From a virus (Duplodnaviria > Heunggongvirae > Uroviricota > Caudoviricetes), in IMG/VR virus record IMGVR_UViG_2713897190_000004: a stretch of 6,794 bases of DNA; one strand, 5' to 3'. The position numbers were made by a program, and so were the translations under genes. Below are positions 301-6,794 of this stretch, piece after piece. Position 1 is the first letter of the stretch; each line of letters starts with the position of its first letter. The notes under the pieces are model-generated. The model worked only from the letters and a program-made list of their open reading frames with translations, was not told the DNA's origin and made no database searches.

Positions 301-385
301 GCCATTTCCTGTTGGATCATGTAAATGACACTCAGGTTACAAAACCGGCCAGAATAATCGGCGCCAGGCGGACTGAGTTATTGTC

Positions 386-596
386 GTCTCATACTCCGGT
401 TAACGATGAAACCATGCAGGAGATTAACACTCTGCTGATCGCCCTGGATAAAACATGGGATGACGACTTATTGCCGCTCTGTTCCCAGATATTTCGCCGC
501 GACATTCGCGCATCGTCAGAACTGACACAGGCCGAAGCAGTGAAAGCTCTTGGATTCCTGAAACAGAAAGCCACTGAGCAGAAGGTGGCAGCATGA
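386..596 (+). pseudogene. bet: 3' fragment of bet (Red-beta single-strand annealing protein); the N-terminal roughly 190 codons are missing.
   Basis: The translation ...[67 protein letters not shown] matches the C-terminus of lambda Bet as I recall it. Its stop overlaps the exo start (ATGA at 593..596), as in lambda. The same frame has a stop at 291..293, and residues encoded by 294..385 do not resemble Bet, so the gene is truncated or replaced at about 380..390. Confidence 0.75.
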
Positions 597-1273
597 CACC
601 GGACATTATCCTGCAGCGTACCGGGATCGACGTGAGAGCTGTCGAACAGGGGGATGATGCATGGCACAAATTACGGCTCGGCGTCATCACCGCTTCAGAA
701 GTTCACAACGTGATAGCAAAACCCCGCTCCGGAAAGAAATGGCCTGACATGAAAATGTCCTACTTCCACACCCTGCTTGCTGAGGTTTGCACCGGTGTGG
801 CTCCGGAAGTTAACGCTAAGGCGCTGGCTTGGGGAAAACAGTACGAGAACGACGCCAGAGCCCTGTTTGAGTTTACTTCCGGCGTGAATGTTACTGAATC
901 CCCGATCATCTATCGCGACGAAAGTATGCGCACCGCCTGCTCTCCCGATGGTTTATGCAGTGACGGCAACGGCCTTGAGCTGAAATGCCCGTTTACCTCC
1001 CGGGATTTCATGAAGTTCCGGCTCGGTGGTTTCGAGGCCATAAAATCGGCTTACATGGCCCAGGTGCAGTACAGCATGTGGGTGACGCGAAAAGATGCCT
1101 GGTACTTTGCCAACTATGACCCGCGTATGAAGCGTGAAGGACTGCATTATGTCGTGGTTGAGCGGGATGAAAAGTACATGGCGAGTTTTGACGAGATGGT
1201 GCCGGAGTTCATCGAAAAAATGGACGAGGCACTGGCTGAAATTAGTTTTGTATTTGGGGAGCAATGGCGATGA
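593..1273 (+). CDS. exo: Lambda exonuclease (Red-alpha, 5'-3' dsDNA exonuclease), full length, 226 aa.
   Basis: 226-aa [57 protein letters not shown]..., which is near-identical to lambda Exo as I recall it. SD-like AAGGTGG lies upstream, and the start overlaps the stop of the bet fragment. Confidence 0.95.
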
Positions 1274-1452
1274 CGCATCCTCACGATAATATCCGGGTAG
1301 GCGCGATCACTTTCGTCTACTCCGTTACAAAGCGAGGCTGGGTATTTCCCGGCCTTTCTGTTATCAGAAATCCACTGAAAGCACAGCGGCTGGCTGAGAA
1401 GATAAATAATAAACGGGAGGCGGTATGCACAAAGCATCTCCTGTTGAGTTAA
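1264..1452 (+). CDS. Small hypothetical protein of the lambda pL operon, orf60a-like.
   Basis: 62-aa ORF immediately after exo, with its ATG overlapping the exo stop region. Position and size match lambda orf60a. Function unknown. Confidence 0.7.
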
Positions 1453-1616
1453 GAACGAGTATTGAGATGGCACATAGCCTTGCTCAAATTGGAGTCAGGT
1501 TTGTGCCAATACCAGTAGAAACAGACGAAGAATTTCATACGTTAGCCACATCCCTTTCACAAAAGCTGGAAATGATGGTGGCGAAAGCAGAAGCAGATGA
1601 GAGAGACCAGGTATGA
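1425..1616 (+). CDS. Small hypothetical protein of the lambda pL operon, orf63-like.
   Basis: 63-aa ORF overlapping the previous gene by 28 nt, as the lambda orf60a/orf63 pair does. GGGAGG lies upstream of the ATG. Confidence 0.7.
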   Translation: MHKASPVELRTSIEMAHSLAQIGVRFVPIPVETDEEFHTLATSLSQKLEMMVAKAEADERDQV

Positions 1617-1626
1617 CAACCACTGA

Positions 1627-1908
1627 ATGCATTTTTCTGGCAGCGGGCTTCATATTCTGTGTGCTTATGCTTGCCGACATGGGGCTTGTTCAGTGACACC
1701 TCAGCAAGAAAACGCCCTTCGCAGCATTGCCCGTCAGGCTAATTCTGAAATCAAAAAAGCCAGACAGCAGTTTCCGGATAAAAACGTCGATGACATTTGC
1801 CGTAGCGTACTAAAGAAGCACCGCGAAACGGTAACGCTGATGGGATTCACACCGACTCATTTAAGCCTGGCGATCGGCATGTTAAACGGCGTCTTTAAGG
1901 AACGGTGA
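1627..1908 (+). CDS. Hypothetical protein in the orf61 position; start uncertain (ATG 1627 or GTG 1693).
   Basis: ORF open 1627..1908. An in-frame GTG at 1693 would give a 71-aa product, VTPQQENALRSIARQANSEIKKARQQFPDKNVDD.... Ends 3 nt before a possible small ORF at 1911. Confidence 0.55.
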   Translation: MHFSGSGLHILCAYACRHGACSVTPQQENALRSIARQANSEIKKARQQFPDKNVDDICRSVLKKHRETVTLMGFTPTHLSLAIGMLNGVFKER

Positions 1909-2006
1909 ACATGAAAAGCAAAATCATCAGGGAGCTACAGGCTCCTTTTTTATTATTCGCATTCACCCTCAAGCGTATTAACCAACAATTCAGGGATTAA
2001 TGAAAG

Positions 2007-2228
2007 ATGGCGGACATCATTGATTCAGCATCAGAAATTGAAGAATTACAGCGCAATACAGCAATAAAAATGCGTCGTCTGAACTACCAGACTATATCCG
2101 CCACTCATTGTTGTGAGTGTGGCGATCCCATAGATGAACGAAGACGCCTGGTCGTTCAGGGTTGTCGGACTTGTGCAAGTTGCCAGGAGGATCTGGAGCT
2201 TATCAGTAAACAGAGAGGTTCGAAGTGA
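2007..2228 (+). CDS. TraR/DksA-family C4 zinc-finger protein (lambda orf73-like); likely binds the RNA polymerase secondary channel.
   Basis: 73-aa ORF with the motif CCECGDPIDERRRLVVQGCRTCASC (CxxC-17-CxxC), the pattern seen in F-plasmid TraR and the DksA C-terminus. An SD-like AGGGA lies upstream. Confidence 0.85.
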   Translation: MADIIDSASEIEELQRNTAIKMRRLNYQTISATHCCECGDPIDERRRLVVQGCRTCASCQEDLELISKQRGSK

Positions 2229-2989
2229 GCGAAATTAACTATCAGGCACTGCGTGAAGCGGCAGAAAAAGCAACGTGTGGTGAGTGGTCGCTCGAATATG
2301 GAGAGAGCCGATTTGATGGTGATTATGCGCTAATTCATCGTGAAGTTGCTGGATATATTCCCATTTGCAGAATTGAAGGAGCGCATCCAGAAAGCGGTTT
2401 CGATGAAGATTTCCAAATGGAACAGCAGGCCAATGCTGAATTCATCGCCGCAGCCAATCCGGCTACTGTGCTGGCACTGCTGGATGAACGGGAAAGAAAC
2501 CAGCAATACATAAAACGCCGCGACCAGGAGAACGAGGATATTGCTCTTACTGTTGGGAAGCTGAGAGTTGAGCTTGAGGAGACAAAATCAAAACTCAACG
2601 AGCAGCGTGAGTATTACGAAGGTGTTATCTCGGATGGGGGTAAGCGTATTGCTGAACTGGAGAAAAGCGAAGAGCAACTCATTAACGAGCGTGACCATGC
2701 TGAATCTGCTTTAGCAGATATGTACTTTGCAGCAACCGGGGATGAGCCGGAGTGGAGCAACTGGTTCGGCTTTTCAGATGCTGTCGATGCCGTGGTTGAC
2801 AGAATTGCTGATTTAGAAGCTAAACAGCCATCACCAGTAGTACCGGAAGGACTGGTTAAAGCAGTGCGCTTCTATGAACAGGTTAAGCGTGAAAATCCAC
2901 CAGTCGAAACAGAGGCATGGAAAGACGCTATTGACTGGGTGCTCAAAGAGTCTTGTCAGGCTGTAAACATTGATACCAATGGAGATTGA
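2225..2989 (+). CDS. ea22: Ea22-like protein, 254 aa, with a coiled-coil-prone central region.
   Basis: GTG start overlaps the stop of the TraR-like gene (GTGA at 2225..2228), with GAGGT 6 nt upstream. The N-terminus MSEINYQALREAAE... and the central block LLDERERNQQYIKRRDQENEDIALTVGKLRVELEE..KSKLNEQREYYEGVISDG match lambda Ea22 as I recall it; the rest diverges. Confidence 0.75.
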   Translation: MSEINYQALREAAEKATCGEWSLEYGESRFDGDYALIHREVAGYIPICRIEGAHPESGFDEDFQMEQQANAEFIAAANPATVLALLDERERNQQYIKRRDQENEDIALTVGKLRVELEETKSKLNEQREYYEGVISDGGKRIAELEKSEEQLINERDHAESALADMYFAATGDEPEWSNWFGFSDAVDAVVDRIADLEAKQPSPVVPEGLVKAVRFYEQVKRENPPVETEAWKDAIDWVLKESCQAVNIDTNGD

Positions 2990-2990
2990 T

Positions 2991-3245
2991 ATGAGCACTT
3001 TTACCGACAAAGAACTGATTAAAGAAATCAAAGAGCGTATCAGCAGTTTGGATGTGCGAGACAATGTTGAGCGCCGGGCTTATGAAATTGCTCTGGCATC
3101 GCTGGAAGAGAATCCGGTGGCATGGCTGCATTCAGACAATGGCTTAGGTATTCCGGCAATAACGAGGAGTAAAAACATTGCTGACAGTTGGTTATCAAAG
3201 GGTTGGTATGTTCAGCCGCTATATATGCCAAGCCAGTGCCAGTAG
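2991..3245 (+). CDS. Hypothetical protein, 84 aa as read; probably the N-terminal piece of a frameshifted paralog of the 4004..4744 gene.
   Basis: ATG at 2991 with GGAG 6 nt upstream, 1 nt after the ea22-like stop. Its N-terminus MSTFTDKELIKEIKERISSL...RRAYEIALASLEENP parallels the N-terminus of the 4004 product (MTTITKERIELFIKNPL...MELARIALASLEREQ). Confidence 0.55.
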   Translation: MSTFTDKELIKEIKERISSLDVRDNVERRAYEIALASLEENPVAWLHSDNGLGIPAITRSKNIADSWLSKGWYVQPLYMPSQCQ

Positions 3246-3262
3246 TACCTGAAGAAAAACCA

Positions 3263-3796
3263 ATGCCTAACCCTCTTAGCATGTACGCGGTCGATGCTGT
3301 TGCCGCTATTGCAGAGGTGAGAGGCTGGAACGCCTGCCGCGCGGCTATGCTTCATGCCGGAAACTTTCGGGAAAACGCGAATTCGTCAACCAATAATTTT
3401 CGGGAAATTTCGGAAACGTCAACCAACTCTCCGGTAATTCCTGGTGAGGTGTTGTCCGCAATCCTGAAATTTGCCAGAGTTCGTGCTGATTTCGATGATT
3501 TTGACGGCGACAGGCGAGGTATCGGTGATTGTCTGGATGAGGCTGAGCAAGAGCTTATCGTTACCATTAACAAATATGCCAGTCAGTTGGCAGCAGAACC
3601 GATAGCGACTAATGACGTTCGAGAGCAGCAGACAGCCGTTCCGCCAGTTCCTGTAATACAGGCTGATGTCGCGCAAGCAATTGAAAATCTCAGGCAGAAG
3701 TTAGTGGAATGCAATCGCTATAACTACTGCGCAGATGCAGTTAAGGGCGTAGAGGATGCCTGCCACGCTGCCATGCTTCAGGGAAAAAGAGAGTGA
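3263..3796 (+). CDS. Hypothetical protein; probably the C-terminal piece of the same frameshifted gene. Start uncertain (frame open from 3185; ATG at 3263 or 3281).
   Basis: ORF in the frame of 3188..3796. No convincing SD precedes any candidate start, unlike every other gene in the operon. Contains NSPVIP, encoded by an 18-bp stretch identical to one in the 4004..4744 gene. Stop at 3794..3796 lies 1 nt before the next start. Confidence 0.5.
   Translation: MPNPLSMYAVDAVAAIAEVRGWNACRAAMLHAGNFRENANSSTNNFREISETSTNSPVIPGEVLSAILKFARVRADFDDFDGDRRGIGDCLDEAEQELIVTINKYASQLAAEPIATNDVREQQTAVPPVPVIQADVAQAIENLRQKLVECNRYNYCADAVKGVEDACHAAMLQGKRE
3362..3427 (+). repeat. Imperfect 33-bp (11-codon) tandem duplication inside the 3263..3796 coding region.
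   Basis: Two adjacent units, aactttcgggaaaacgcgaattcgtcaaccaat and aattttcgggaaatttcggaaacgtcaaccaac, encoding NFRENANSSTN and NFREISETSTN in frame. Confidence 0.6.
3424..3441 (+). repeat. 18-bp exact direct repeat (copy 1), caactctccggtaattcc, encoding NSPVIP.
   Basis: Identical 18-mer found again at 4411..4428 inside the paralogous gene. Confidence 0.8.
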
Positions 3797-3797
3797 T

Positions 3798-4007
3798 ATG
3801 GCTATTGCCGCAAGTTACACCATGCATCTCTATTGTGATTGTCGCCAGTGTACGGAAGGTGTATATCCAGTGCCAGACTTCGGTGAGTATATCGGTACGT
3901 CATGGTCTGGTTGTGCAAAAGAGGCCCGTAAAGACGGGTGGCGAATAAGCAAAGACAAAACACGTACTTTTGCGCCCGGGCATAAAGTTTTGAGGATTAA
4001 CACATGA
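3798..4007 (+). CDS. Small cysteine-rich protein, 69 aa, possible Zn-binding; function unknown.
   Basis: ATG at 3798 with AGAGAG upstream. Translation MAIAASYTMHLYCDCRQCTEGVYPVPDFGEYIGTSWSGCAKEARKDGWRISKDKTRTFAPGHKVLRINT has a C-x-C-x2-C cluster plus a distal Cys and His. Its stop overlaps the next start (ATGA at 4004..4007). Confidence 0.6.
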   Translation: MAIAASYTMHLYCDCRQCTEGVYPVPDFGEYIGTSWSGCAKEARKDGWRISKDKTRTFAPGHKVLRINT

Positions 4008-4744
4008 CCACTATTACCAAAGAACGTATTGAATTGTTCATTAAAAATCCGCTTGAAAACGGGCTTACTCGTGGCGAACAAATGGAACTAGCACGAATTG
4101 CACTGGCATCACTGGAACGCGAACAGATTCGCCACGAGCATGCCAAATGGTCTGACTCCACATTTGGCTGCGTTGGCCCCATTGGTCCACTGAAACACCT
4201 CTCAAAAGAGGCACTGGAAGCCGCAGCCGAACCAGACGATCTTAGCGAGTGGGCTGATATGCAGTTTCTGTTGTGGGATGCACAGCGCCGTGCTGGCATC
4301 AGCGATGCTGAAATTACCGTTGCTATGGAAGATAAATTGAAGATCAACATGGAGCGCCAGTGGCCTGAGCCAAAAGATGGTGAGCCTCGCTTGCACATTA
4401 AAGAACCCGGCAACTCTCCGGTAATTCCGGATGGTTTATCCACGGTATGCGCTGAGGCTTATCAGGTTGTAGGAGTTATGGCAGATGCGCTTGGTGTATT
4501 CGGTGATGCAGCAGTACAGAAAGTTCTGGATAACCTGTCACAGCAAAAACTTGTTCACAGAGATGTGCTGCCGTTCTCGCTTCCGGTAACTCCGGATGGT
4601 TGGGTTATGGTTCCTAAACAGGTAACGCCGGAAATCAGCAACGCGATAAACGTTGTGGGTCAACGCTGTACATGCGGAAATTGCTCTCAGCGGTTGTGGG
4701 ATTTATTACTCGACGCCACACAGCAAGGAGTTAACCGTGGCTAA
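4004..4744 (+). CDS. Hypothetical protein, 246 aa; intact paralog of the 2991..3796 locus.
   Basis: ATG at 4004 with GAGGA 7 nt upstream. Shares the IALASLE N-terminal motif and the NSPVIP motif with the upstream locus. C-terminus contains CTCGNC. Confidence 0.75.
   Translation: MTTITKERIELFIKNPLENGLTRGEQMELARIALASLEREQIRHEHAKWSDSTFGCVGPIGPLKHLSKEALEAAAEPDDLSEWADMQFLLWDAQRRAGISDAEITVAMEDKLKINMERQWPEPKDGEPRLHIKEPGNSPVIPDGLSTVCAEAYQVVGVMADALGVFGDAAVQKVLDNLSQQKLVHRDVLPFSLPVTPDGWVMVPKQVTPEISNAINVVGQRCTCGNCSQRLWDLLLDATQQGVNRG
4411..4428 (+). repeat. 18-bp exact direct repeat (copy 2), caactctccggtaattcc, encoding NSPVIP.
   Basis: Identical to 3424..3441. Flanking bases differ on both sides. Confidence 0.8.
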
Positions 4745-5021
4745 CCTGCAACTTGCCGTTAAAGGTGAATACTTCGATGCCATGATTCGCGGAGAGAAAA
4801 CGGAAGAGTATCGCCTGTGTAATGACTACTGGAAAAAGCGCCTCGTTAACCGTAAGCATGACCGCCTGATTATCACAAAGGGATATCCGAAGCGCGACGA
4901 TTCCAGCCGCAGAGTTGATGTTCCGTATGACGGATATGAAGTGAAGACAATCACACATCCGCACTTCGGTGATAAACCGGTAAAGGTATACGCGATAAAG
5001 GTAAATATCGGCACTGAATAA
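4737..5021 (+). CDS. ASCH/PUA-like domain protein (putative), 94 aa from the GTG start.
   Basis: GTG at 4737 preceded by AAGGAG (4725..4730) at 6-nt spacing, overlapping the stop of the previous gene. The N-terminal LAVKGEYFDAMIRGEKTEEYR resembles the G-x-K-T-x-E-x-R signature of ASCH-domain proteins (for example E. coli YqfB), from memory. Confidence 0.6.
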   Translation: MANLQLAVKGEYFDAMIRGEKTEEYRLCNDYWKKRLVNRKHDRLIITKGYPKRDDSSRRVDVPYDGYEVKTITHPHFGDKPVKVYAIKVNIGTE

Positions 5022-5046
5022 CAATCCGCACAACACAAGGTCAAGA

Positions 5047-5286
5047 ATGTTCAGAGTGATTTACCCTAACACCTGGTACGTCGACCACCACGGCACTCCC
5101 TGCAAAATCCTGCGTTCCACTCACAACAAAGTTCACTACATCCGAAAAGGCAGAACATGTATCGCCAGCATGTTCCGCTTTAATCATGACTTTGAACCTG
5201 TGAATAAAGCTGACGCAGATCGGATAGCTGAAGAGATCGAAACAGCAGAACACATTAAGAAGTTACGTGCCATACGCAGGAAATAG
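5047..5286 (+). CDS. Hypothetical protein, 79 aa, basic C-terminus.
   Basis: ATG at 5047 with AAGG 6 nt upstream. Last gene before the AT-rich spacer that precedes xis. No recognisable motif. Confidence 0.55.
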   Translation: MFRVIYPNTWYVDHHGTPCKILRSTHNKVHYIRKGRTCIASMFRFNHDFEPVNKADADRIAEEIETAEHIKKLRAIRRK

Positions 5287-5425
5287 AAAAATTGATAAAT
5301 TCAATACTGCATTTCTCAGCATTAAATTTATCTCTATGACCAGTCAAGAGATGTACCTGCCATGAGCTTAATATCATGTCAGATATATCGGTCACAAACT
5401 CCCTCAGCAGCTAAGAGGAGGACAA

Positions 5426-5662
5426 ATGTCTCGACTAATCACTTTACAGGACTGGGCTAAAGAAGAATTTGGGGACTTAGCACCAAGTGAGCGAGTTCTG
5501 AAAAAATACGCGCAAGGGAAAATGATGGCCCCACCCGCTATAAAAGTTGGTCGCTACTGGATGATTGACCGAAATTCCCGTTTTGTAGGAACGCTTGCAG
5601 AACCGCAACTCCCAATAAACGCAAACCCAAAACTCCAACGGATAATCGCTGATGGCTGCTAG
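5426..5662 (+). CDS. xis: Excisionase (lambda Xis-family winged-helix recombination directionality factor).
   Basis: 78-aa ORF with a strong SD (TAAGAGGAGG) upstream. Sequence ITLQDWAKEE...APPAIKVGRYWMI parallels lambda Xis (LTLQEWNARQ...FPPPVKDGREYLF). The 3' end overlaps the int start by 11 nt. Confidence 0.85.
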   Translation: MSRLITLQDWAKEEFGDLAPSERVLKKYAQGKMMAPPAIKVGRYWMIDRNSRFVGTLAEPQLPINANPKLQRIIADGC

Positions 5663-6794
5663 ACCCCGATCTCACAAAATCTCTATACCCAATTTATATT
5701 GCAAATTAGATAAGCGAACCGGAAAGGTATATTGGCAATACAAACATCCACTATCCGGTCGTTTTCATAGCTTAGGAACTGATGAGAATGAAGCAAAACA
5801 AGTTGCTACTGAAGCAAATACCATTATTGCTGAACAACGTACCCGACAAATATTAAGCGTCAATGAGCGTCTAGAAAGAATGAAAGGCAGGCGCTCAGAC
5901 ATTACGGTGACAGAATGGCTTGATAAATATATTTCTATCCAGGAGGACAGGCTGCAACATAATGAACTAAGACCCAACTCCTATCGGCAAAAAGGCAAAC
6001 CCATTCGTCTTTTCCGTGAGCATTGTGGAATGCAACACCTCAAGGATATTACCGCACTTGATATTGCCGAAATAATTGATGCTGTAAAGGCTGAAGGTCA
6101 TAACAGGATGGCGCAAGTCGTGAGAATGGTGTTGATCGACGTCTTCAAAGAAGCACAACACGCAGGACATGTTCCGCCAGGATTTAACCCAGCGCAGGCA
6201 ACAAAACAACCGCGAAATCGAGTAAACCGCCAAAGATTATCACTGCCCGAATGGCAGGCAATATTTGACAGCGTAAGCAGACGGCAGCCCTATTTAAAAT
6301 GCGGGATGCTACTTGCTCTTGTCACTGGACAACGTTTAGGCGATATCTGCAATTTGAAATTCTCTGATATCTGGGACGACATGTTGCACATTACTCAGGA
6401 AAAAACCGGTTCAAAACTTGCTATTCCGCTTAACCTGAAATGCGATGCTCTGAATATTACCCTTCGTGAAGTTATATCTCAGTGCAGGGATGCTGTTGTT
6501 AGTAAATATCTGGTCCATTACCGTCACACTACCTCTCAAGCAAACAGAGGAGACCAGGTGTCTGCAAATACTCTTACAACGGCTTTTAAAAAGGCCAGGG
6601 AAAAATGTGGCATAAAATGGGAGCCAGGAACTGCGCCCACATTTCATGAGCAGCGATCTCTGTCAGAACGGTTATATCGGGAACAGGGTCTGGATACGCA
6701 AAAGTTGTTAGGTCATAAATCCAGAAAAATGACCGACCGATACAATGATGATCGTGGTAAAGACTGGATTATCGTAGATATCAAAACAGCATAG
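5652..6794 (+). CDS. int: Tyrosine integrase, lambda Int family, full length 380 aa; divergent from lambda Int.
   Basis: Clear similarity to lambda and HK022 Int over the catalytic domain: LVTGQRLGDICNLKFSDI, KTGSKLAIPL, PTFHEQRSLSERLY, LLGHKSRKMTDRYNDDRGKDW. The catalytic R, K, H-x-x-R, H and Y positions are all present. The stop codon is the last 3 nt of the window. Confidence 0.95.
   Translation: MAARPRSHKISIPNLYCKLDKRTGKVYWQYKHPLSGRFHSLGTDENEAKQVATEANTIIAEQRTRQILSVNERLERMKGRRSDITVTEWLDKYISIQEDRLQHNELRPNSYRQKGKPIRLFREHCGMQHLKDITALDIAEIIDAVKAEGHNRMAQVVRMVLIDVFKEAQHAGHVPPGFNPAQATKQPRNRVNRQRLSLPEWQAIFDSVSRRQPYLKCGMLLALVTGQRLGDICNLKFSDIWDDMLHITQEKTGSKLAIPLNLKCDALNITLREVISQCRDAVVSKYLVHYRHTTSQANRGDQVSANTLTTAFKKAREKCGIKWEPGTAPTFHEQRSLSERLYREQGLDTQKLLGHKSRKMTDRYNDDRGKDWIIVDIKTA

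Follow-up and report, generated by a model that had tools for sequence, protein, structure and literature searches.

The closest described relative of the gene analyzed here is orf73 of bacteriophage lambda, and its purified product competes with DksA for RNA polymerase (RNAP) (Gopalkrishnan et al., mBio 2022, PMC9239242). Lambda Orf73 inhibits the rrnB P1 promoter with an IC50 of about 50 nM without ppGpp and likewise inhibits rpsT P2; little or no activation was found at thrABC, argI, and rpoH P3, and the lambda lytic promoters that were tested were unaffected (PMC9239242). The substitutions D3N and D6N crippled its activity in vitro, and the protein complemented a dksA-null strain. After pL induction, the rRNA leader was reduced to 29% and rpsT mRNA to 45%, and host growth was slowed by the protein (PMC9239242). 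TraR of the F plasmid (PDB 5W1S, 6N57/6N58; Gopalkrishnan 2017; Chen 2019, PMC6970531) is also 73 aa long and has the same three-part architecture, which was divided by cryo-EM into an N-terminal helix (residues 2-27), a globular domain (residues 28-57), and a C-terminal helix (residues 58-73). Its globular domain is placed on the beta' rim helices, with Si3 contacts through E46, R49, and K50, and its C-terminal helix touches beta lobe-Si1 (PMC6970531). The TraR finger, C37-x2-C40-x17-C58-x2-C61, has the same spacing as that of the Orf73-type protein. TraR activates thrABC, argI, and the F tra promoters, whereas lambda Orf73 does so weakly or not at all, and the TraR gene is located on a conjugative plasmid, whereas orf73 is located on a phage, in the pL operon. 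DksA of E. coli (PDB 1TJL, 5VSW, 7KHI) has in common with these proteins the C4 finger family (PF01258), the RNAP secondary-channel site, the DxxDxA motif, and inhibition of rRNA promoters, but it is 151 aa long, its acidic motif is carried on a coiled-coil tip, and it is fully active only with ppGpp. E. coli YbiI (PDB 2KGO) and other short zinc-finger proteins of the DksA/TraR family share the finger, with the N-terminal DxxDxA helix lying outside the match.

The window, that is, the whole stretch of 6,794 nt that was analyzed, comes from a lambdoid prophage, of which it is the early-left accessory region, and over 390..6794 it matches Escherichia phage ev017 (NC_049948) at 100% identity. All phage genes are on the plus strand, in the order tail end of bet, exo (PF09588), orf60a (DUF1317), orf63 (DUF1382), a homologue of orf61, orf73, and an ea22-like gene, followed by small ORFs of unknown function, a PF04447 gene, a gene annotated as ASCH, xis, and int. 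The ASCH-domain label comes from the ev017 record, and a Pfam search of that ORF here matched nothing. The same order of exo, orf60a, orf63, orf61, orf73, and ea22 is found in the exo-xis block of lambda; the differences are in ea22, which encodes 182 aa in lambda and 254 aa in the window, and in the accessory genes between ea22 and xis. The exo-xis block of Stx phages was described in PMC8614690. The genes of this region referred to below are as follows.

2007..2228, plus strand: orf73 coding sequence for a TraR-family zinc-finger protein, 73 codons plus TGA (from the ORF listing, Pfam, and the identity to lambda Orf73).

2225..2989, plus strand: ea22-like gene encoding 254 aa (PF13935 Ead_Ea22, E=4e-40).

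4004..4744, plus strand: gene with a dATP/dGTP pyrophosphohydrolase domain (PF04447).

A first, sequence-only reading of the window had singled out orf73 as the only gene of the accessory stretch with a predictable molecular target, which does not hold, as the PF04447 gene also has one.

The orf73 reading frame starts with an ATG at 2007, the first possible start past the upstream stop, and encodes a product of 73 aa with the sequence MADIIDSASEIEELQRNTAIKMRRLNYQTISATHCCECGDPIDERRRLVVQGCRTCASCQEDLELISKQRGSK. In the ORF scan, nothing besides orf73 longer than 34 aa overlapped 2007..2228 on either strand. A chance ORF or a reading of the opposite strand was rejected on the ORF table, the conservation, and the pattern of synonymous and non-synonymous changes. 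The product is identical to lambda Orf73 at 71/73 residues (97%, gapless, E=7e-53), with H27Y and A29T as the differences, and in length, start, and stop the lambda gene (30392..30613, minus strand, NC_001416; 73 aa) agrees with the window gene. The coding DNA carries 8 synonymous and 2 non-synonymous changes relative to lambda, and a single base differs in the 98 nt upstream of orf73. The two proteins share the DxxDxA motif, the six cysteines, the RRR-L segment, and the C-terminus, and the two genes share the slot between orf61 and ea22 and an upstream spacer with a hairpin. Because protein, gene, and spacer DNA are all nearly identical to those of lambda, the window gene was called as the orthologue of lambda orf73 on sequence grounds. 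The sequence, motifs, predicted fold, orthology, and synteny were all established here.

Family membership was assigned with profile searches and alignments. The Pfam model zf-dskA_traR (PF01258) matched residues 33-64 with 35.7 bits against a gathering score of 24.9 (E=8.4e-9), and PHROG 54, 'DksA-like zinc-finger protein', matched residues 1-71 (E=1.5e-24). NCBIfam TIGR02419 (C4_traR_proteo) was matched over all of its profile (positions 1-64 of 64, E=1.6e-14) with 54.2 bits, a near miss of the 59.7 cut-off. Two narrower identities were rejected: plasmid TraR itself (27.7 bits against the cut-off of 108 of the NCBIfam conjugal TraR equivalog) and the chromosomal paralogue PRK11019 (36.5 bits against an equivalog cut-off of 96). 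The best sequence matches in the PDB were the F-plasmid TraR chains 5w1s_M and 6n57_M, aligned over residues 1 to 64 (E=4.5e-5), and BLASTP gave 34% identity to TraR. Compared with TraR, the window protein has an N-terminal helix shorter by two residues and two additional cysteines, and K50 and P45 are replaced by L48 and D43. The protein encoded at 2007..2228 thus belongs to the TraR family, and DksA is related to it only at the level of the superfamily. Where DksA has a coiled coil, it has one N-terminal helix, and, judging from TraR and lambda Orf73, it would act independently of ppGpp and at a lower concentration than DksA.

The functional residues of TraR and lambda Orf73 were then placed on the window protein. 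Conservation was scored on an alignment of 65 proteins, made up of the window protein and 64 near-full-length representatives (56-96% identity, 69-74 aa). The three segments that would face RNAP and the zinc finger are listed below.

2013..2030, plus strand: N-terminal DxxDxA motif, codons D3-I-I-D6-S-A8, aligned one to one with D3-E-A-D6-E-A8 of TraR.

2109..2183, plus strand: C4 zinc-finger region C35-x2-C38-x17-C56-x2-C59 with the extra cysteines C36 and C53 (six-frame regex scan; Pfam match to residues 33-64).

2136..2150, plus strand: codons E44-R45-R46-R47-L48, equivalents of the rim-helix and beta' Si3 contacts (TraR alignment).

2175..2213, plus strand: predicted C-terminal helix, residues 57-69, with Q60 and E64, equivalent to Q62 and E66 of TraR (AlphaFold2 model; TraR alignment).

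Both the 73-aa size and the CxxC-17-CxxC finger named in the sequence-only reading are as it gave them, and both equal those of F TraR; C35, C38, C56, and C59 correspond to C37, C40, C58, and C61, E44 to E46, and C36 and C53 to positions 38 and 55. The N-terminal acidic residues that it proposed to check are D3 and D6, in the TraR register. Within the DxxDxA motif, D3 is conserved in 64/65 proteins and D6 and A8 in 65/65, and the N-terminus MADIID is kept in 64/65. R46 and R47, equivalent to R48 and R49 of TraR, are kept in 64/65 and 63/65, and Q60 and E64 are invariant (65/65). The full set of residues invariant in all 65 proteins is D6, A8, E12, S31, C35, C56, Q60, and E64. The roles of TraR R48, R49, E46, and K50 were described in PMC9239242 and PMC6970531. 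The Si3-interface motif ExxRK of TraR (E46, R49, K50) is incomplete in the window protein, where E44 and R47 are present and L48 replaces K50; lysine occurs at position 48 in only 2/65 relatives, and the ExxRL deviation of lambda Orf73 was already pointed out in PMC8614690. L48 in place of K50 fits weak activation, because the K50A substitution in TraR halves activation with inhibition still normal (PMC6970531). The ExxRK motif bears on activation, not on membership of the TraR family.

The similarity to TraR (34% identity) and to lambda Orf73 (97%) is full-length, and the possibility raised with the first reading, that the likeness to TraR/DksA would be limited to the cysteine spacing, does not apply. 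A generic small zinc-finger protein, either DNA-binding or of unknown role like YbiI and without action on RNAP, was considered because of the Pfam match to residues 33-64 only, the TIGR02419 score under its cut-off, and the match to YbiI, which was the next PDB sequence match and covered only the finger (residues 31-65, E=1.5e-4). We know of no RNAP function established for YbiI. With DxxDxA in the same register as in TraR, TraR in complex with RNAP as the best structural match, and near-identity to a biochemically proven RNAP binder, a generic finger is scarcely credible, and orthology to lambda Orf73 effectively refutes it. The earlier assignment as a TraR/DksA-like RNAP modulator is upheld by PF01258, PHROG 54, the TraR alignment, Foldseek, and the identity to lambda Orf73.

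The structure was predicted with AlphaFold2 using the 65-sequence alignment. The mean pLDDT was 80, with ten-residue blocks over residues 31-70 at 91-95 and low-confidence blocks at the N-terminal tip (57) and at the helix-domain junction (63). The elements of the model are a helix at residues 6-27, the zinc knuckle region, a short helix at 44-49, and a helix at 57-69 (block pLDDT 91-93), and no coiled coil was predicted. In a Foldseek search of the PDB, the top match was RNAP-bound TraR 6n57_M (probability 1.00, TM 0.57, 72 aligned columns, E=1.6e-3, rmsd 5.6 A), followed by 5w1s_M, YbiI, and then DksA in RNAP complexes. The DksA match was weaker (E=0.012, 22-23% identity) and covered the C-terminal half of DksA only. 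Models of free Orf73 in PMC8614690 differ from bound TraR in the inter-helix angles, and a conformational change on binding was suggested there. The rmsd of 5.6 A between our model and bound TraR is consistent with such a change, without proving it.

From these comparisons, the gene at 2007..2228 is very probably the lambdoid prophage orf73 with a product that acts on host RNAP as lambda Orf73 does. The same mechanism was assigned because the residues implicated in lambda Orf73 are all present in the window protein; RNAP binding, promoter effects, and phenotype of the Y27/T29 allele are taken over by analogy. On prophage induction or infection, orf73 would be transcribed early in the leftward pL operon, as in lambda. 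By analogy with the TraR structures and the lambda Orf73 experiments, the N-terminal helix would enter the RNAP secondary channel and bring the D3-x-x-D6-x-A8 tip beside the active-site region, the Zn(Cys4) globular domain would be seated on the beta' rim helices through R46/R47, and the C-terminal helix would touch beta lobe-Si1 through E64. Following lambda Orf73, the conformation of RNAP would then be shifted without DNA binding and without ppGpp, promoters with short-lived open complexes (rRNA and ribosomal-protein promoters) would be inhibited, host growth would be slowed, and resources would be diverted to phage production. At amino-acid biosynthesis promoters, the window protein is expected to activate poorly, as lambda Orf73 does. 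RNAP binding by the lambda orf73 protein, which the sequence-only reading had given as reported, is experimentally shown, and mimicry of DksA/ppGpp, as it had also been put, is borne out for inhibition and fails for activation, which is weak if present at all at thrABC, argI, and rpoH P3 (PMC9239242).

The phenotype that follows from action on RNAP is disputed. After mitomycin C induction, phage yield was 3-4 fold higher with intact lambda orf73 than with D3A/D6A or an in-frame deletion (PMC9239242). With the same secondary-channel target, the main role could instead be a bias toward lysogeny or a block of host replication initiation ('bin', assigned to the orf73-ea22-ea8.5-orf55 cluster). Deletions in lambda and Stx phages lowered host survival and lysogenization, which was read as a pro-lysogenic role (PMC8614690), and both an earlier study with reduced yield in the presence of Orf73 and earlier 'bin' work are acknowledged in PMC9239242. 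Lambda Orf73 also inhibits dnaA P2/P1 (IC50 about 0.4 and 1.7 uM), but the change in dnaA mRNA at single-copy Orf73 expression was weak, if any, and the mutations that cut the yield 3-4 fold were non-polar (D3A/D6A) or in-frame (PMC9239242). A main role in lysogeny or replication control is the less favored reading, though one with a real chance of being correct, and the lytic-yield and pro-lysogeny or 'bin' roles are mutually compatible.

Signals around the gene were read from the sequence and from terminator and fold predictions, as listed below.

1929..1953, plus strand: terminator-like hairpin (AGGGAGC/GGCUCCUU) with a U-run after it, located between orf61 and orf73, 60 nt ahead of orf73 (terminator scan).

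1992..1996, plus strand: Shine-Dalgarno-like AGGGA, 10 nt before the ATG (read from the sequence).

2225..2228, plus strand: GTGA, in which the TGA stop of orf73 overlaps the GTG start of the ea22-like gene (2225..2989) (sequence and ORF table).

The single upstream base that differs from lambda lies outside the AGGGA element, and lambda orf73 is translated according to ribosome profiling as cited in PMC9239242 and PMC8614690. The GTGA overlap is also present between orf73 and ea22 of lambda and suggests translational coupling of orf73 and the ea22-like gene. The hairpin is 100% identical to the lambda copy and appears in both the MFE and the centroid folds, and the overall folding of the region around it is no better than that of shuffled sequence (z = -1.06). 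Only the local stem-loop and the U-run are notable in this region. In the literature searched for the lambda tL3 terminator, no description of this hairpin was found, and the term was met in unrelated uses only. An Rfam scan of the whole window on both strands gave no RNA family. If functional, the hairpin would probably tie orf73 expression to N-antiterminated transcription from pL.

Expression of orf73 in this element is uncertain, as a copy of ISEc10 interrupts bet between pL and orf73. In the window, positions 1..~389 match the istA end of ISEc10 (IS21-family) at 99% identity, in an orientation antiparallel to the phage genes; the bet frame resumes at 390 with about 68 C-terminal codons left, a difference from lambda. 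Phage and genome matches to the remainder of the window all begin at 390, and the exact IS/bet junction was absent from the 5,426 complete E. coli genomes searched. These observations would fit a decaying prophage in which orf73 is intact but silent cargo, with the recombination module disabled by the insertion in bet, transcription from pL possibly blocked or reduced, and the protein without a role in this host. Against decay, the ORFs from exo to int, with orf73 among them, are all uninterrupted and match ev017 at 100% identity, and the insertion is therefore recent; the remainder of the prophage falls beyond the window. Also, terminators are read through by N-modified RNAP in lambdoid phages, so polarity is not a necessary consequence of a 2.5-kb IS. 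We consider silent cargo unlikely, and a gene that acts as lambda orf73 does remains the preferred reading.

The two substitutions that separate the window protein from lambda Orf73, which has H27/A29, are located at the junction of the helix and the globular domain, at about TraR residues 29 and 31. A scan of viral contigs returned alleles 97-100% identical only and was used for allele frequencies, not for deep conservation; among the closest viral contigs, Y27/T29 was found in 65/82 and the lambda form in 15/82. The identical protein is present in records of Stx1a-converting phages, and identical DNA is present in many RefSeq E. coli genomes, where it is annotated as 'TraR/DksA family transcriptional regulator'. 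Y27/T29 is thus a common natural allele. A functional shift relative to lambda Orf73, with weaker or stronger RNAP binding or another promoter spectrum, was considered, because among the 65 aligned representatives threonine at position 29 is found in the window protein alone, with alanine in 61/65, and because positions 27 and 29 fall where the TraR globular domain (28-57) begins, the domain that touches the beta' rim helices. However, both positions are outside the residues known to matter in TraR (PMC9239242, PMC6970531), and a deleterious allele is unlikely because Y27/T29 is so common. Such a shift is, on balance, quite improbable, and activity like that of lambda Orf73 is expected of this allele. 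Over 21 distinct DNA alleles, pN/pS was about 0.10 (19 synonymous and 7 non-synonymous variant sites), a value biased low by the choice of loci by protein identity.

The same scan of six frames that located the finger found no other stop-free CxxC-x17-CxxC (or x10-25) in the window, and no second TraR-like finger as in phage 933W was found; the CxxC-17-CxxC pattern occurred in only 2/500 shuffled windows. Among the 65 aligned proteins, the zinc cysteines C35, C38, C56, and C59 are conserved in 65, 63, 65, and 64, respectively, and the extra cysteines C53 and C36 in 64 and only 20. TraR has no cysteine at the position of C53 (V55); in the window protein, C53, C56, and C59 make up the series C-x2-C-x2-C. 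For the finger of DksA, a role as a thiol switch has been proposed. The near-invariant C53 might provide Orf73 with a thiol switch or with another set of metal ligands, by which its hold on RNAP would respond to oxidative stress, a speculative idea to which we give little weight. Work on the induction of such lysogens by hydrogen peroxide is cited in PMC8614690. The TraR-equivalent positions of the extra cysteines, 38 and 55, agree with those given by Gopalkrishnan et al. for lambda Orf73, and it was speculated by these authors that the extra cysteines disturb folding, which would explain the lack of activation (PMC9239242).

The finding is already known, as the family, structure, target, and phenotype of the lambda orthologue are all published, and the first reading had likewise described it as established biology rather than novel. 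A large protein collection yielded 177 relatives; among the matches listed, identity went down to about 57%, and the named ones are TraR/DksA family regulators. The practical value is in annotation: orf73 is without annotation in the RefSeq records of lambda (NC_001416) and of ev017, the closest sequenced phage, though it is called in bacterial genomes by the NCBI pipeline. The gene was found in 432 phage records and, at a DNA identity of at least 80%, in 3,294/5,426 complete E. coli genomes (about 61%), in up to six places per genome. In the sampled prophages, the Y27/T29 allele outnumbers the laboratory form of lambda, on which the experiments were done. With up to six copies per genome, induction of multiple prophages could sum to a sizeable, ppGpp-independent shutdown of ribosome synthesis.

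Two cysteines beyond the C4 finger are found in Orf73, the TraR-family protein of the window, and they differ in how widely they are kept. Across the 65 aligned relatives (56-96% identity), C53 is present in 64 and C36 in just 20. C53 combines with C56 and C59 into a C-x2-C-x2-C array, whereas F-plasmid TraR has valine at this position. The features discussed here, in window coordinates, are as follows.

1..~391, ISEc10 end, istA on the minus strand
390..596, bet remnant
1334..1356, second terminator-like site, within orf60a
1627..1908, plus strand, orf61 homologue, an uninterrupted 93-aa ORF
1929..1953, plus strand, terminator-like stem-loop in the orf61-orf73 spacer
2112..2114, C36 codon of orf73
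2163..2165, C53 codon of orf73
3756..4007, plus strand, cysteine-rich 83-aa ORF, phrog_926 (unknown function)
4004..4744, plus strand, 246-aa ORF with a dATP/dGTP pyrophosphohydrolase domain (PF04447, E=8e-42)

The RefSeq entries for lambda (NC_001416, 30392..30613, minus strand; 2693..2914 of the extracted lambda locus) and phage ev017 (NC_049948, about 3119..3340 of the extracted ev017 locus) annotate no orf73 CDS, and in bacterial genomes the gene is annotated by NCBI's pipeline. Translation of lambda orf73 is reported from ribosome profiling cited in PMC9239242 and PMC8614690. A protein 97% identical to the E. coli lambdoid Orf73 of the window is also encoded in MW057783.1, titled Campylobacter phage CJLB-4; this record appears to be a lambdoid sequence that carries the name of a Campylobacter phage through contamination or mislabelling, rather than a case of true host range.

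The stem-loop in the spacer (AGGGAGC / GGCUCCUU), with a U-run after it, is 60 nt upstream of the orf73 start and is kept at 100% in lambda; no name for it was found in the literature searched. The site within orf60a is probably lambda tL3. Further upstream, the phage bet gene is broken by ISEc10, an IS21-family element whose istA-proximal end makes up the first ~389 bases of the window (99% identity) and which is positioned between pL and the exo-xis genes. About 68 C-terminal codons of bet are left, and these are joined to IS-derived sequence in an ORF at 312..596. None of 5,426 complete E. coli genomes contains the exact ISEc10/bet junction.

The 83-aa ORF overlaps the 3' end of the preceding 202-aa ORF and has no match in Pfam. 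It is not TraR-like; of its four cysteines, three are clustered as CDCRQC. The 246-aa ORF, labelled DUF550 in older annotation, is, going by its domain match, a second accessory gene whose biochemical activity can be predicted.

A match to phrog_303 (1-93 of 101) covers the full length of the window's orf61 homologue, and the lambda counterpart of this gene lies at about 30712..31024 of NC_001416. The A-run at 1753..1758 is A6 in the window vs A7 in the lambda reference. Because of this extra A in lambda, set against the intact 93-aa ORF of the window, the 61-aa lambda 'orf61' looks like a frameshifted, truncated version of a longer ancestral gene.
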